Shown here piece by piece: positions 20,343 to 25,422 of a stretch of 64,000 nt of DNA. Origin of the DNA: Nannocystales bacterium (GTDB lineage: Bacteria; Myxococcota_A; Polyangia; Nannocystales; Nannocystaceae); contig JBOEGF010000032.1 of the NCBI GenBank assembly GCA_050633305.1, positions 257,222 to 321,221 on the forward strand. The letters run 5' to 3'. The notes beneath the pieces were generated by a model, which searched no databases, was not told the DNA's origin, and worked only from the letters and a program-made list of their open reading frames with translations. Position 1 is the stretch's first letter. Every line of letters starts with the position of its first letter. A program made the translations under genes and the position numbers.

Positions 20343-21595
20343 GTCAAGACGAGTCCTTCTCCGCCCTGTTCGAATCAAACACCTCCGGACAGGGTGGGCA
20401 GCGTACGGAACTTCGCGCGGGTCAGCGCATCACAGGCACTGTCGTCGCCATCACCGCCGATACGGTCTTTGTCGACGTCGGCGGTCGTGTCGAGGGGCAC
20501 CTTGCCCGCAACGAGATCCTCGGAGACGACGGTGAGCCCAAGCTGTCCATCGGGGACAGTGTCAAGGCGACGGTCGTCCAAGCCGGCCGCGGTGCGCCTG
20601 TGCTCCGTGTTGCCTTGGGCCGCGGCGAAGCTGGCACCGCCGAACTCGAGCTGGCCGCCGAGAGCGGAACCCCGGTCGAGGGAACCTTCAGCAAAGCGGT
20701 CAAGGCTGGCCTCGAGGTCGACATCTCGGGCAAGCGTGCGTTCTGCCCCGCGTCCCAAGTCGACGTCCAGTTCGTGCAAGACCTGGAAACGTTCGTTGGA
20801 CAGACGAACTTCTTCAAGGTGCTCGAGGTTCGTGACAACGGGCGCTCGATCGTCGTCAGTCGACGCGCCCTGCTCGAGGCGGAGCGGGCCGAAAAAGCCC
20901 AGGAGCTGCTGGGCCGCCTCGAAGCTGGCGCTGAGCTCGAAGGCATCGTGCAGTCGCTGCAAGCCTACGGCGCGTTTGTCGACATCGGCGGGATCCAAGG
21001 CCTGCTGCACGTCTCCGAGATCAGCACCGCGCGCGTCACCAGTCCTTCGGACGTCCTGTCCGTCGGCGAGAGCGTCCGGGTCTTGGTCAAGAGCATCGAG
21101 TCCCAGGCCGACGGCAAACCGCCGAAGATCAGCCTGTCGATGAAGGCGCTGATGCAGGGCGGCGATGCACCTGCCCCCAAGCAGAACGAGGTCGTCACGG
21201 CCACCGTCGACAAGATCGAAAACTTCGGCGTGCTGGTCACCACCGAGGGCGGCTCGGGCCTCATCCCCACCTCCGAACTCGACCTCCCCCTCAACTCCGA
21301 CCCGCGTCGGCGCTACAAAGTGGGCTCCGAGGTCGAGGTTGTTCAGATGCGTGGCGGCGCCCAGGGCAAGCTGCGGTTCTCGGTCCGCGCCGTCGCCCAG
21401 GCTGAGGAGCGCAACGCGTTTGCGAACTTCCGGCAGTCCCAAGGCAAGGGCAAAGGCGGCGGAAAGCAGAAGGCGGGCAAGCTTGGCTCGCTCGGCGACC
21501 TGCTCGCCGGGATCGATCTCGGCGGGGGCGGCTCCCAATCCCAATCCCAATCCAAGTCCAAGCCCAAGTCCAAGTCCAAGTCCAAGTCCAAGTAG
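20339..21595 (+). CDS. multi-S1-domain RNA-binding protein (short RpsA paralogue)
   Basis: About four S1 repeats (VFVDVG, RAFCPASQVD, YGAFVDIGGIQGLLHVSEIS, FGVLV). ATGA overlap with the kinase. Confidence 0.88.
   Translation: MSQDESFSALFESNTSGQGGQRTELRAGQRITGTVVAITADTVFVDVGGRVEGHLARNEILGDDGEPKLSIGDSVKATVVQAGRGAPVLRVALGRGEAGTAELELAAESGTPVEGTFSKAVKAGLEVDISGKRAFCPASQVDVQFVQDLETFVGQTNFFKVLEVRDNGRSIVVSRRALLEAERAEKAQELLGRLEAGAELEGIVQSLQAYGAFVDIGGIQGLLHVSEISTARVTSPSDVLSVGESVRVLVKSIESQADGKPPKISLSMKALMQGGDAPAPKQNEVVTATVDKIENFGVLVTTEGGSGLIPTSELDLPLNSDPRRRYKVGSEVEVVQMRGGAQGKLRFSVRAVAQAEERNAFANFRQSQGKGKGGGKQKAGKLGSLGDLLAGIDLGGGGSQSQSQSKSKPKSKSKSKSK
21533..21592 (+). repeat. coding hexamer microsatellite (TCCCAA x3, then TCCAAG-type x7)
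   Basis: Encodes SQSQSQSKSKPKSKSKSKSK at the C-terminus of the S1 protein. Confidence 0.9.
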
Positions 21596-21711: not shown

Positions 21712-22575
21712 TCAGAACTGAAACTGGACGCTCAGACTCCCCGCAACGTTGAAGTCGCGCTTGGGGGTGACGGGGAGCTGCAGGTTCGCTGCGAGCAGAC
21801 CCCAGGAGGCGAAGCTATAGCTGACGCCGCTGAGGTGTGCGATGCGAACCGAGCCAACCTGACGCTCGGTCTCCGTCGCACGGTTGCCGCTGCAATACGA
21901 CGACCCGCCGCCAACCTCAGCACACAGGTTCGCTACCCGCACGTCGGCAAGCGCCCCGAGGCTCAACCCCAGCTTGCCGAACGCCCGGTACCCGACTTGG
22001 CCGCTGGCCGTCACGTCGAACGCCGTCCCGGCGGGACGATGCTCGGCCGTCCCCAAGAGCATCACCTGCCAATACGTCCGCAGGTGCGTCCGCGTGAACA
22101 TGACCATCGGAGACACGGTCCAGCCCCGGCCGGGGTCGGCCTCGAACCGAAGCGAACGTGTGGGCACGGAGATGTTGACGCCCGTGGTGACGACGCGGTG
22201 GATCAGCTTGTCCGCGTGGGGGGTCAGCCGGAAAAATGCCCTCGTGTCGCCGTACCCGACCTTGCGCGGTGCGGAGTCCTCATCGACGATAAGCACTGGG
22301 GCCTGCGCACCCAACGAAATCCACGGATGCGGCGCGTACTCGCCGAGCAACGACGTGTTGTACGTGGTCGCCGGGTTGAGACTGGTGGAGTTGCGGCTGT
22401 ACTCCTGGAGGAGCATGAGCCGGGAAGTCGCCTGGCCAGAACCGCCACCAAGACTGTTCAGGTTGCGAACTCCCTCCGAGGCCCCATGCCCCGGGACATG
22501 GTGGGCCCGTGCGAGACCCGGGGCCGCCACGCATGTGCACAGCGCGGCGAGGGCCGAGGCGCGAACGGCCTTCAT
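21712..22575 (-). CDS. predicted outer-membrane beta-barrel protein with His-rich N-terminus (COG4313/transporter-like)
   Basis: Signal peptide ending ARA, mature start HHVPGHG, amphipathic beta strands, GYGD and GVNISVPT motifs, C-terminal Phe (SLSVQFQF). Confidence 0.65.
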   Translation of the reverse strand: MKAVRASALAALCTCVAAPGLARAHHVPGHGASEGVRNLNSLGGGSGQATSRLMLLQEYSRNSTSLNPATTYNTSLLGEYAPHPWISLGAQAPVLIVDEDSAPRKVGYGDTRAFFRLTPHADKLIHRVVTTGVNISVPTRSLRFEADPGRGWTVSPMVMFTRTHLRTYWQVMLLGTAEHRPAGTAFDVTASGQVGYRAFGKLGLSLGALADVRVANLCAEVGGGSSYCSGNRATETERQVGSVRIAHLSGVSYSFASWGLLAANLQLPVTPKRDFNVAGSLSVQFQF

Positions 22576-22895
22576 CGAAGCCCCCGTCGGGGGACATGGC
22601 ATCCCACGCAAGTCCGTTCGTCATCCAGCATCCACTGGGCGACGAGCGACGCTCCCCCACCCTGCATCCGTTGATGAATCGACGCTTCCCGCCTCCGCGG
22701 CGACATCGCGGCCAACCCGTCGAGCACGCGTTGTTCGGCCTCGTGACAACTCATGCACGTGTCATCGCCAGCGGTTTCGGTCAGCCCCGCGTGGTGCTGA
22801 ACCGGCCGAATCCCAGGTGCCAACGCCGGCAAGCAGGCACCCAGCGTCGCCGCCATCAGGGGCGCGAACGCCAGTGATCGGACGCGGAAAGACAC
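22572..22895 (-). CDS. small diheme c-type cytochrome lipoprotein
   Basis: 107 aa; lipobox LGAC; two heme motifs CMSCH and CVGCH; stop overlaps the ATG of the barrel gene. Confidence 0.75.
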   Translation of the reverse strand: MSFRVRSLAFAPLMAATLGACLPALAPGIRPVQHHAGLTETAGDDTCMSCHEAEQRVLDGLAAMSPRRREASIHQRMQGGGASLVAQWMLDDERTCVGCHVPRRGLR

Positions 22896-22928
22896 GCCCC
22901 TGGACTACGGGATGGCCTCTGCGCGTGC

Positions 22929-22964
22929 TGCGACCGACCGTCGCAGTCGCGACACCCTGTCGCA
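22929..22964. promoter_or_regulatory. two tandem RegA/PrrA-type binding boxes
   Basis: TGCGAC-cgacc-GTCGCA (22929-22945) and CGCGAC-accct-GTCGCA (22948-22964) in the divergent intergenic region. Confidence 0.7.
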
Positions 22965-23003
22965 CGTGGCCGAGCACGATGCTCGTGGCACACTGCCCTC
23001 GCG

Positions 23004-24296
23004 TTGAGCGCTCCCAAACCCAGCCTCGCTCCGGCCGCCCTGACCCAACGGGGACTCGTCACCGCGCGGTGGGTGACGGTCGCCTTGATGGGTGCTGCCG
23101 CCTCTCTAATGGCGTTCGCGCCGCAGTTGGTGGCCCCCGTGCTGAGCTGGGTGCCCACGTCGGGAACGATCGCCGGGTTCGTCGCGATCCTCGTCGCACT
23201 CGCGATGTTCAACGTCTACGTCGCTCGTGTGGTCCTGCCGACCGGCCGCGCAACCGTCACGTTCGCGGGCCTCCAGCTGCTCGCCGACTCCGCCGCGCTC
23301 ACATTGCTGCTTGGCCTGACCGGAGGCGCGACCAACCCGTTCACGACGCTGTACTTCGTCCCGATCACGCTCGCGACGCAGGTCTCGCCCCGCTGGACGT
23401 GGGCCGTCGCCGGGGCATCCCTCGCGGGCTTCGGTCTGCTGTACCTCCTGGGGCCGCTCCCCCAGGGACCGCCTGGCCATGAGCACCACTTCGCAGGGCA
23501 CCTGCAGGGGATGTGGTTCTCGTTCGGAGTCACCGGTGCGCTCATCACCTACTTTGTGCACAGCATCGCGATGTCCGTCGCCCGACAGCGGGCCGAGCTC
23601 ACGCGGCTGCGAGACCAGGCGCTCGAAGACCGACACCTCGCAAGCTTGGGGAGCCTCGCAGCCGGGGCTGCCCACGAGCTCGGAACCCCGCTGGGTACGA
23701 TCGCGGTGCTCGCCTCCGAACTCCCGCACATGGAAGACGCGGAGCGGGACGATGCATCCGACTCGATTCGGCACGAGGTCTCGCGCTGCAAGAAGATCGT
23801 CCAGCGGATGTCGACCCCGGACGCCCGCGTGCACGCGCTCGGGGCCGATGCGGAGCCATGGGCCCTGCATGATCTCCACAGCGAGCAACATGCCGCGGGC
23901 GAGGTCCCGGTCGAGGTCAGCTTCGACGGGGCCAGTGCAGACGCCGCATGCGACCTGCCCCGCGACGCTCTCGGGCAGATCCTCCGCGAACTGTTGGCGA
24001 ACGCCGCCGAGGCCTGCCGACGCCGGAAAGGAGAGCATGGCATCCGCGTCAGAATCTCAGCCGCCGACGCGATGGCCCACGTCCAGGTCGAAGACGACGG
24101 AGAAGGCATGGACGCCGCCCTCGCGGGCGCCGCGTTCGATCCCTTCTTCTCCACCAAACCCGAAGGGTCCGGAATGGGCCTGGGCCTGTACCTCACCCGC
24201 GCCCAACTCCGTCAGCTCGGCGGTAGCATATCGGCAGAGTCCGAACCCGGCCGCGGCACAACCGTCACCATCACCTTCCCGCTCGCCTCGACATGA
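23004..24296 (+). CDS. regB: RegB/PrrB/ActS-family redox sensor histidine kinase
   Basis: About six TMs, quinone-binding TGGATNPF, H-box AAHELGTPL, N/G boxes (ELLANA, DDGEG, PFFSTK, GMGLGL). Start codon uncertain. Confidence 0.85.
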   Translation: MSAPKPSLAPAALTQRGLVTARWVTVALMGAAASLMAFAPQLVAPVLSWVPTSGTIAGFVAILVALAMFNVYVARVVLPTGRATVTFAGLQLLADSAALTLLLGLTGGATNPFTTLYFVPITLATQVSPRWTWAVAGASLAGFGLLYLLGPLPQGPPGHEHHFAGHLQGMWFSFGVTGALITYFVHSIAMSVARQRAELTRLRDQALEDRHLASLGSLAAGAAHELGTPLGTIAVLASELPHMEDAERDDASDSIRHEVSRCKKIVQRMSTPDARVHALGADAEPWALHDLHSEQHAAGEVPVEVSFDGASADAACDLPRDALGQILRELLANAAEACRRRKGEHGIRVRISAADAMAHVQVEDDGEGMDAALAGAAFDPFFSTKPEGSGMGLGLYLTRAQLRQLGGSISAESEPGRGTTVTITFPLAST

Positions 24297-24874
24297 ACAG
24301 CCCCAGCGACATCAACCCGGACGGCGAAACCATCCTCATCACCGACGATGACAAGGCGTTCTGTGCCGCGCTCACCGGAGCGTTCCGGCGGCGGGGCTTC
24401 AAGGTGGTCGTGGCGCACGACTACGATGACGCGATTACGGAGGCCGAGGCGTGGAGTCCAGGACGCGCCGTGGTCGACCTGCGCATGCCCGGCCGCGGTG
24501 GACTCGAGGTCGTGGGCGAACTCCACGGCAAACACCCGAACATGAAGATCGTGGTGCTCACGGGGTACGGCAGTATCGCGACCGCCGTCGAAGCGATGAA
24601 GCTCGGTGCGGTCCACTACCTGACCAAACCCGCAGAGCCCGACGAGGTCCTCGCCGCGTTCGAGCGTACCGAGCCGGCCACCGATGTCACCGAGGAGTCG
24701 GCCAACCCTCGCTCGCTCGAAGAGGTGGAGTGGGAGCACCTGCAACGGGTGCTCACCGACTGCGCTGGCAACATCTCGGAGGCCGCGAGGCGACTCGGCA
24801 TGCACCGGCGGAGCTTGCAACGGAAACTCGCACGCGGTCGGCCGGGCGAAGGCCTTGGGCCGGCCGAAGAGTGA
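24293..24874 (+). CDS. regA: RegA/PrrA/ActR-family response regulator
   Basis: AVVDLRMP, LTGYGSIATAVEAMKLGA, VEWEHLQRVL..C.GNISEAARRLGMHRRSLQRKL. Confidence 0.92.
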   Translation: MNSPSDINPDGETILITDDDKAFCAALTGAFRRRGFKVVVAHDYDDAITEAEAWSPGRAVVDLRMPGRGGLEVVGELHGKHPNMKIVVLTGYGSIATAVEAMKLGAVHYLTKPAEPDEVLAAFERTEPATDVTEESANPRSLEEVEWEHLQRVLTDCAGNISEAARRLGMHRRSLQRKLARGRPGEGLGPAEE

Positions 24875-25422
24875 TGTCCTCAAAGACCAGCCGCCTGTTC
24901 GTCGGACTCCCGCTCCCGCCGATGCTCGCCCAGCAACTGGCGCTGCTCGGCGGCGGGATTGAAGGCGCTCGGTGGGAGGCCCCTGAGAAGCTCCATCTCA
25001 CGCTTCGGTACCTGGGGGACGTGGACGGAGGACAGCGTGCCGCACTCGACGAATGCCTCCGCTCGGTTCGTGCGCCTTCGTTCTCGCTCACGGTCCGTGG
25101 CTGCGGTCACTTTCCACCGCGGGGAGAACCGCGGTCGCTGTGGCTCGGGCTCGCGGATTCACCCGCCCTCCAACGCCTTCACGATCAGTTGGAGAGCGCG
25201 ATACGCAGCGCGGGCTTCGAGGCGGATGCTCGGGGGTTCGTGCCACACATCACCCTGGCGCGACTCAAACGCTCGCCCAGCAAGAAGGTCGCCGCGTGGC
25301 TGGGAATGCACGCGTTGTGGGACGCGCCCCCTTTCGAGGTCGAGTCCTTCACCCTGTACTCGAGCATCCTCCGCGCCACCGGTTCCCGCTACACGCCCGA
25401 GGCGCACTATCCTCTGGCCTGA
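24874..25422 (+). CDS. thpR: RNA 2',3'-cyclic phosphodiesterase (2H family)
   Basis: RLFVGL, two HxT motifs (LHLTLRYLG, PHITLAR), YSS.L. Confidence 0.9.
   Translation: MSSKTSRLFVGLPLPPMLAQQLALLGGGIEGARWEAPEKLHLTLRYLGDVDGGQRAALDECLRSVRAPSFSLTVRGCGHFPPRGEPRSLWLGLADSPALQRLHDQLESAIRSAGFEADARGFVPHITLARLKRSPSKKVAAWLGMHALWDAPPFEVESFTLYSSILRATGSRYTPEAHYPLA

Follow-up and report, generated by a model that had tools for sequence, protein, structure and literature searches.

The window, a 64-kb stretch of genomic DNA, contains four genes arranged as two divergent units with two palindromes between them (Table 1). On the minus strand, a gene for a diheme c-type cytochrome lipoprotein overlaps the gene for a predicted outer-membrane barrel by ATGA (TCAT on the plus strand), and on the plus strand a RegB-like sensor kinase gene is followed by a RegA-like response regulator gene. 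The spacing from the first palindromic box to the second is 19 nt. The preliminary description of this DNA had reported a 107-aa lipoprotein with two CXXCH motifs and its ATGA coupling to the barrel gene at 22572 to 22575; ORF and motif reading confirmed the lipoprotein, and the coupling was confirmed as well. A search of largely open-access literature found no paper describing this gene layout.

Table 1. Genes and putative regulatory sites of the locus (positions in the window)
Feature	Position	Strand	Details
Predicted outer-membrane channel gene (barrel)	21712-22575	-	287 aa counted from ATG
Diheme c-type cytochrome lipoprotein gene, unnamed family	22572-22895	-	107 aa, GTG start
Palindrome 1 (RegA-type)	22929-22945		Perfect TGCGAC-N5-GTCGCA; core GCGACCGACCGTCGC at 22930-22944
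Palindrome 2 (RegA-type)	22948-22964		1 mismatch; core GCGACACCCTGTCGC at 22949-22963
regB, RegB/PrrB/ActS-like sensor kinase	23004-24296	+	GGATNPF, His-rich loop, H-box, RC cysteine
regA, RegA/PrrA/ActR-like response regulator	24293-24874	+	Receiver and Fis-type HTH

A synteny search for the four genes, whose co-occurrence elsewhere had been left to be checked, showed a real conserved module. The cytochrome gene lies immediately 5′ of the barrel gene in 40 of 42 related loci, and the remaining two stop at contig edges. Both genes are under purifying selection, with dN/dS values of 0.26 to 0.32 for the cytochrome and 0.07 to 0.11 for the barrel against four congeneric loci, and regA is present as a single copy in the 11-Mb genome. 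In two loci (L076 and L106), the cytochrome-barrel pair is physically linked to mbnPH. A TonB-ExbB-ExbD-ExbD-receptor cluster was rejected as a part of the module, as it was found downstream of the barrel gene in just 5 of the 42 loci. In most other genera, a gene for a His-tailed lipoprotein, overlooked in the preliminary description, lies between the box and regB; in this genome it lies beside mbnPH.

The cytochrome has a lipobox (LGA|C) with the lipidation cysteine at C21 and heme motifs CMSCH at residues 47 to 51 and CVGCH at residues 96 to 100. C21, both CXXCH motifs, H35, W88, and M89 are invariant among 24 cytochrome sequences, and two CXXCH motifs are present in 39 of 40 cytochrome loci. 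H35 and W88-M89 are candidate distal heme ligands. The structure model, computed without hemes (pLDDT, 87.3; pTM, 0.63), gave no Foldseek match in the PDB.

The partner protein had been described as an exported beta-strand protein starting with HHVPGHG and ending in Phe. Both ends were confirmed (ARA|HHVPGHG), which gives a predicted mature N terminus of HHVPGHG, with the cleavage site inferred from the AxA motif, and ~265 mature residues. Structure prediction agrees with an outer-membrane barrel: the AF2 model has 12 long strands at a pLDDT of 90.8, with residues 21 to 30 at low confidence. The position of the His tip is not predicted because its pLDDT is below 50. In the structure search (VIA), the best match was the COG4313 channel 4RL8 (Z, 22.4; root mean square deviation, 2.9 Å; 231 residues aligned), tied with the secretion channel FapF (Z, 21.6). 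Residue 38 onward pairs with 4RL8 residue 2 onward, and residues 38 to 51 align with the COG4313 plug. The protein had no Pfam or NCBIfam match, and its family profile had no sequence match in the PDB. PF13557 was found in 1 of 102 close homologs, weakly (E, 0.042), and not in the window protein; several remoter matches of the barrel profile exceed the PF13557 cut-off, and 37 to 48% of the members of the Atlas neighbors carry PF13557. The barrel is predicted to be a distant COG4313/PF13557-like channel with an N-terminal plug segment. A metagenome scan with a distant barrel as the query returned one 1-kb contig. Within the family, the C218/C228 pair and eight Arg residues are invariant; Asp takes the place of mature His1 in 14 of 120 homologs, and the His at position 2 is invariant. 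Judged from the alignment, such an Arg set would be unusual in a pore that simply conducts cations. The characterized COG4313 channels carry hydrophobic compounds (PMC4493636).

A c-type cytochrome lipoprotein translationally coupled to an outer-membrane barrel, with a redox-type regulator above, would suit an MtrAB-like porin-cytochrome conduit, one of the two roles originally proposed. However, such a conduit is very unlikely because the barrel as predicted is too narrow for a cytochrome to pass through. First, the predicted barrel has 12 strands and a putative plug of its own, and the lumen of the matching COG4313 channel is ~10 to 12 Å even without the plug (PMC4493636). Second, the cytochrome has only two hemes. 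Third, the neighbors recurring in at least 3 of the 42 loci include no second multiheme partner. Finally, in other Myxococcota families RegBA adjoins relatives of the barrel and mbnPH without this cytochrome.

The palindrome presumably resembles the RegA/PrrA consensus, as had been suggested. The loose form GCGNC-N5-GNCGC is not enriched within the 64-kb window (14 seen versus 14.1 expected). Across the 11-Mb genome, 58 copies of the strict form GCGAC-N5-GTCGC were counted, and the pair at this locus is the only one within 100 nt. The palindromes upstream of the cytochrome gene proved to be conserved: a box with at most one mismatch to TGCGAC-N5-GTCGCA was present in 27 of 39 loci, compared to 4 of 1,823 control windows, where the related genomes are not independent samples. 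At the one-mismatch level, the box is absent in 12 of the 39 loci. Because the box consensus was read from the same loci, the positional controls alone are independent. All six perfect 17-mer boxes in the genome are intergenic (by our own gene calls; 84% coding), and the top sites of a matrix trained without this genus were intergenic in 10 of 11 cases, where the reversed control gave 0 of 5.

The same box marks a putative regulon. Among Nannocystaceae, it lies upstream of mbnP in 16 of 29 loci, compared to 0 of 29 in-gene controls, and for the actA/ACIII-oxidase operon the corresponding count is 7 of 30 loci. Boxes are also found in this genome ahead of a multicopper oxidase gene, the unnamed His-tailed lipoprotein gene, the ACIII-oxidase operon, and two cusCBA operons, one of which includes a Cu-ATPase gene. 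The assignments are supported by family matches: MbnP and MbnH both exceed their NCBIfam cut-offs, the two boxed RND operons are of the CusA/CzcA type, and the Cu P1B ATPase exceeds TIGR01511.

The sensor has GGATNPF at 107, the H-box AHELGTP at 223, and EVSRCKK, with the post-H-box Cys, at 258. As described before, the pair beside the module is of the RegBA type, and RegB and RegA have their top NCBIfam matches in NF033792 at 171 (cut-off, 350) and NF033791 at 182 (cut-off, 250), both below the equivalog cut-offs. Plasmid searches with RegB as the query gave no matches. The His-rich loop of the sensor (GHEHHFAGH, ending in HLQGMW) is present as reported, but sequence comparison indicates that it characterizes the RegB group of Myxococcota rather than this locus, the loop end reading HxxGM[W/F] in 16 of 17 other RegBs. 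In RegB, R31 and Q38 of TM1 take part in quinone binding (PMC3000548). The R31-equivalent Arg is retained here, and the +7 position, the equivalent of R. capsulatus Q38 as located by spacing from the Arg and not by alignment with R. capsulatus RegB, is Met. At this position, a residue other than Gln is found in 15 of the 17 Nannocystaceae RegBs that could be read, and NSF replaces NPF in 5 of 18.

These features bear on an explanation in which RegBA is an ordinary quinone-pool regulator with a broad redox regulon that simply includes the copper genes, and the module functions in the handling of Ni, Zn, Co, or Fe or in respiration at low oxygen. The sensor retains both GGxxNPF and the post-H-box Cys (PMC3000548); His tips are not copper specific, and the boxed ACIII-oxidase operons would also fit. 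Relatives of the pair have broad targets: copCAB is among many RegR-controlled genes (PMC4064962), cadmium tolerance requires RoxSR (PMC12041740), and iron uptake is tied to RegB/A (PMC13274454). Nevertheless, we consider this explanation improbable: the top-scoring and most conserved of the predicted box targets are copper genes, and the Q38 and NPF replacements also speak against it.

The association with copper genes extends beyond the family. In phylum regions picked by RegB alone, a barrel-like gene is adjacent in 7 of 13 and mbnPH in 2 of 13, and in regions picked by the barrel, regA and mbnP are present in 5 of 7; the barrels of those regions start with HH, CC, or CxxC-type tips. Copper binding by MbnP follows its modification by MbnH (PMC11951088), and mbnPH pairs have been described near MbnT-like TonB-dependent transporters (PMC3621798). 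Another explanation is that the barrel, as a channel or surface translocon of the copper regulon, passes a partner lipoprotein or an anionic chelate of copper and that the cytochrome, instead of reducing metal, serves as a small electron carrier for the diheme enzyme MbnH or another periplasmic redox enzyme. The tie of FapF with the COG4313 channel as the top structural match would fit this explanation, as would the small lipoproteins (YtkA-like, His-rich, or cytochrome) nearly always found beside module barrels; an anionic cargo would suit the invariant Arg set, and mbnH is co-regulated and sometimes linked. However, in 40 of 42 loci the cytochrome gene is coupled to the barrel gene and not to mbnH, and mbnPH-barrel modules occur in other families without this cytochrome. 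On balance, this explanation seems unlikely.

The module is best read as the form that a RegBA-controlled copper module of the envelope takes in Nannocystaceae, with the addition of a diheme lipoprotein that is likely a redox partner. The channel and the coupled lipoprotein likely form a joint envelope copper gate, likely switched by RegBA (probability, roughly 55%). A copper gate is favored over an electron wire because the upstream box is common to the module and copper-handling genes. In such a gate, RegA would bind both boxes and control both divergent units within a copper regulon, and the free N-terminal Xaa-His...His segment of the barrel would bind Cu(II) at the plug. The membrane-anchored cytochrome would dock on the barrel and not be threaded through it, and tentatively, it might alter the redox state of copper and so release it. 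The co-regulated His-tailed lipoprotein and MbnP would receive the copper, plausibly for a heme-copper oxidase.

Reductive uptake of Cu, Ni, or Fe was the other role originally proposed. A metal unit is supported and the box-defined regulon narrows the metal to copper, but import is only slightly favored over export, as the putative regulon mixes acquisition-type genes (mbnPH and exbBD) with detoxification genes (cus, Cu-ATPase, and oxidase). A more specific version, which we regard as rather doubtful, is a TonB-independent redox-gated importer in which the diheme protein reduces plug-held Cu(II) to Cu(I) for periplasmic carriers and RegB, shifted from quinone toward copper sensing via its His-rich loop, is the main copper regulator.

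The passage of ionic copper over the Gram-negative outer membrane is poorly characterized, and it is not settled which physiological function MbnP/MbnH serve in organisms other than methanotrophs. The module offers a concrete channel candidate with partners from two unnamed protein families, as well as a predicted regulon, and it is present in the cultured strains Nannocystis exedens DSM 71, Enhygromyxa salina, and Plesiocystis pacifica. If the copper gate is true, COG4313-type channels would have a metal-related role and RegBA a copper-centered regulon.

The locus shares features with several known systems. The MtrAB and OmbB-OmaB-OmcB conduits also have a cytochrome gene adjoining a barrel gene, but their far larger barrels enclose multiheme wires, whereas here a two-heme cytochrome accompanies a barrel that is predicted to have 12 strands and its own plug. 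The RegB/RegA family (PrrBA, ActSR, RegSR, and RoxSR) has GGxxNPF, the H-box, the post-H-box Cys, and the Fis-type HTH in common with the pair here; this RegB differs in the replaced Q38 equivalent and the His-rich loop, and the predicted regulon appears to be centered on copper genes. The invariant mature His1 of His-brace copper proteins is not a feature of the barrel family, given the Asp variants. The mbnPH genes bear the same box and are sometimes linked to the module, but the linked outer-membrane protein, compared to described MbnP/MbnH loci, is a small, predicted 12-strand channel with a diheme lipoprotein. Finally, the COG4313/PF13557 channels (Pput2725 [PDB 4RL8], SphA, and TcpY) resemble the barrel in the predicted 12-strand fold and plug-like N-terminal segment at 12% identity and with no direct Pfam match, whereas the barrel has a His-tipped N terminus, a loop disulfide pair, and an invariant Arg set, and its linked genes are those of a cytochrome and of copper handling instead of aromatic or lipid catabolism.

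All features of the preliminary description, namely the diheme lipoprotein, its ATGA overlap with an exported partner, the two palindromes, and the divergent regB-regA pair, were found at the coordinates tabulated below. The cytochrome, barrel, regB, and regA each occur once in the 11-Mb genome. Both the cytochrome gene and the barrel gene are under purifying selection, with dN/dS values of 0.26-0.32 and 0.07-0.11, respectively, against four congeneric loci. The pair also recurs elsewhere: the cytochrome gene lies directly upstream of the barrel gene in 40 of 42 related loci, and in the other two the contig breaks off at the barrel. regA shares the locus in 18 of the 42; among 72 Nannocystaceae genomes searched, the barrel was present in 43 and RegA in 62. 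A LigT-like gene adjoins regA in 10 of the 42 loci, and in 5 (L079, L090, L092, L098, and L103) the barrel is followed by co-directional genes for TonB-ExbB-ExbD-ExbD and a TonB-dependent receptor.

Coordinates of genes and sites (window positions unless a contig or locus is named; G000, genome of the window)
Feature	Position	Strand	Remarks
Tail of S1-domain protein	21530-21595		C-terminal (Ser-Lys/Gln)n tail from a short 6-nt repeat
Barrel gene	21712-22575	-	ORF; exported protein, 287 aa
Cytochrome gene	22572-22895	-	ORF; lipoprotein, 107 aa, two CXXCH
Palindromes 1 and 2	22930-22944, 22949-22963		Upstream of cytochrome gene
regB	23004-24296	+	By layout, divergent from cytochrome-barrel
regA	24293-24874	+	By layout, divergent from cytochrome-barrel
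2H-phosphoesterase (LigT-like)	24874-25422		Abuts regA
His lipoprotein gene	G000:C8:285198-285806 (= L113:7199-7807)	-	Relocated from cytochrome-barrel locus
cusCBA-type operon	G000:C36:94460-104509		Directly behind perfect box; copper P1B ATPase at its end
cusCBA-type operon	G000:C24:375780-383395		Directly behind perfect box
Alternative complex III-oxidase operon	G000:C7:257003-270970		Heme O synthase, SCO-like gene (by eye), and cytochrome c come first; 1-mismatch box kept in 4/4 genomes of genus
L169 region	G458:C1:9750648-9755664		Second barrel-like gene, small CXXCH protein, His-rich lipoprotein, mbnP-mbnH co-directional; perfect box

Both CXXCH motifs were invariant in 24 aligned cytochromes, as were C21 (lipobox), P27, H35, V85, W88, and M89; their invariance makes H35 and M89 candidate distal heme ligands. 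The predicted cytochrome model is mostly helical and had no Foldseek match, and in the Atlas the protein resembles small unnamed proteins and a PF09699 cluster. Its profile matched 2 of 301 Myxococcota genomes searched, both Nannocystaceae. The window barrel protein had no sequence match in Pfam, NCBIfam, or the PDB; more distant profile matches reached PF13557, with concordant Atlas neighbors. An AlphaFold2 model (69-sequence alignment, pLDDT 90.8) predicts 12 long strands and a short helix at 34-42, bearing out the proposed outer-membrane barrel, with low confidence at the His tip. Among the best 120 of 143 homologs, the predicted mature N terminus was HHVPGH in 87, an HH variant in 10, DH in 14, and unread in 9, and 113 ended in Phe. 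H26, C218, C228, and eight Arg were invariant across 102 sequences.

The top structural match was 4RL8, a COG4313 channel (Z 22.4, rmsd 2.9, 231 aligned, running from residue 38 of the model and residue 2 of the chain), with FapF tied (Z 21.6). According to PMC4493636, the N-terminal segment of 4RL8 plugs a lumen of about 10-12 Å from the periplasmic side. Such a lumen would be too small to thread a folded cytochrome, which counts against an MtrAB-like arrangement. The suggestion that barrel and cytochrome form an electron conduit found no backing in the predicted model, and we consider it highly improbable.

The preliminary four-gene layout stood, but it overlooked a fifth gene, a small lipoprotein divergent from the cytochrome and ≤700 nt away in 26 of 40 cytochrome-bearing loci. 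Outside the clade of G000's genus, it is usually just before regB where regBA is adjacent. Its invariant residues are four Cys past the lipid Cys, D, H, and HxH. The G000 protein, which bears no family name, is Cys-knotted and His-tailed (CxxxxDC...CDxH..G.CQ..HxH) and has repeats rich in His as well as a Cys-rich domain at the C terminus. The G000 gene lies behind its own tandem box (box consensus, TGCGAC-N5-GTCGCA) and tail-to-tail with mbnP-mbnH; its product had no Pfam or NCBIfam match. At locus L106, it is fused to a YtkA-like domain.

RegB and RegA best matched NF033792 and NF033791, respectively, both below cutoff. The window RegB retains GGxxNPF and the Cys after the H-box, both described for Rhodobacter capsulatus RegB in PMC3000548. 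Of 17 readable family RegBs, 15 have another residue at the Q38-equivalent position, and NSF takes the place of NPF in 5 of 18. The His-rich loop noted earlier is present but not locus specific, as 16 of the 17 further Myxococcota RegBs have one ending HxxGM[W/F]. One genus (L208 = G015:C12, L106, and L107) has a second, divergent type of RegBA that retains the TM1 Gln; in L106 and L107 it is the type linked to cytochrome-barrel, and the best-matching site before the cytochrome is 3-4 mismatches from the box consensus.

The loose pattern GCGNC-N5-GNCGC occurred at chance frequency in the window. Because the box consensus was drawn from the same loci and the genomes are related, the following counts reflect positional conservation, not independent replicates: a box with ≤1 mismatch was found in the 260 nt preceding the cytochrome in 27 of the 39 loci with enough upstream sequence, compared to 4 of 1823 control windows; before mbnP in 16 of 29 loci (excluding a further locus with too short a flank), compared to 0/29 for the in-gene control; and before actA in 7 of 30, four from G000's genus, compared to 0/30. 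The cytochrome box is retained where regBA lies elsewhere, for instance, in Nannocystis. In G000, 6/6 perfect boxes are intergenic by our gene calls, and a matrix trained without its genus gave 11 sites scoring ≥18, 10 intergenic, compared to 5 and 0 for the reversed control. Behind high-scoring sites lie two TolC-CusB-CusA operons, a multicopper oxidase, mbnP-mbnH, the His lipoprotein, an exbB/tolQ-exbD cluster, and the alternative complex III-oxidase operon; several sites (C1, C13, C40, and C50) precede unrelated or uncharacterized genes. At the head of each cusCBA-type operon is a small Cys-rich ORF that has an RGPP/RAPP-like tail and lacks a Pfam match. In five other genomes, perfect boxes numbered 19 and sites of the reversed control 12, only a modest excess; of 15 with surroundings fetched, 4 precede mbnP operons, 2 precede multicopper oxidases, 2 are at cus loci, and the others lie before genes lacking annotation. 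A regulon for redox control in general or for another metal, to which PMC4064962, PMC12041740, and PMC13274454 lend support, seems rather unlikely.

Twenty further regions were fetched, 19 from families other than Nannocystaceae. Of the 13 chosen on RegB match (from 98 genomes with one), a barrel-like gene was adjacent in 7 and mbnPH was present in 2, and regA plus mbnP occurred in 5 of the 7 chosen on weak barrel match. The Nannocystaceae diheme cytochrome was found in 0/20 and the box in 7/20. Their barrels have HH, CC, or CxxC-type N-terminal tips, with profile probabilities against the window barrel of 98 (HH), 95 (CxxC), and only 60 (CC), compared to <1 for shuffles, and their lipoprotein partners are often YtkA-like. 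Genome G438 has a closer barrel relative and the His lipoprotein without the cytochrome. In L106, mbnP, mbnH, and the His lipoprotein directly follow regA, opposite cytochrome-barrel; in L076, mbnPH lies 2.5 kb past the barrel. The shared core is thus RegBA, metal-ligand-tipped barrel, lipoprotein, and mbnPH, the diheme lipoprotein being a Nannocystaceae addition. L169 may be a parallel module in which another cytochrome takes part.

We favor, at a probability of about 0.55, an envelope copper gate controlled by RegBA. First, copper would bind at the plug, on the His segment of the barrel's N terminus; peptides that begin with Xaa-His bind Cu(II). Second, the docked diheme lipoprotein would alter its redox state. 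Third, copper would pass to the His lipoprotein and MbnP; MbnP binds copper after modification by MbnH (PMC11951088). Points against a copper gate are that the box precedes uptake and efflux genes alike, which would suit either direction of flux, and that the barrel has an invariant Arg set for which this reading offers no account. An unlikely alternative is that the barrel is a translocon or a channel for a chelate and that the cytochrome serves MbnH.

The literature search found no paper describing this layout, although each part falls within a known family or is similar to one. What PMC3107203 says on copper regulation in Myxococcus xanthus concerns CorE, PMC7563307 offered nothing further, and the mbnPH pairs described in PMC3621798 lie near TonB-dependent transporters. 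Known COG4313 channels carry hydrophobic compounds, a point against the copper gate. In MtrAB-like conduits the cytochrome is threaded in the barrel, whereas the barrel here is predicted to be too narrow for threading.
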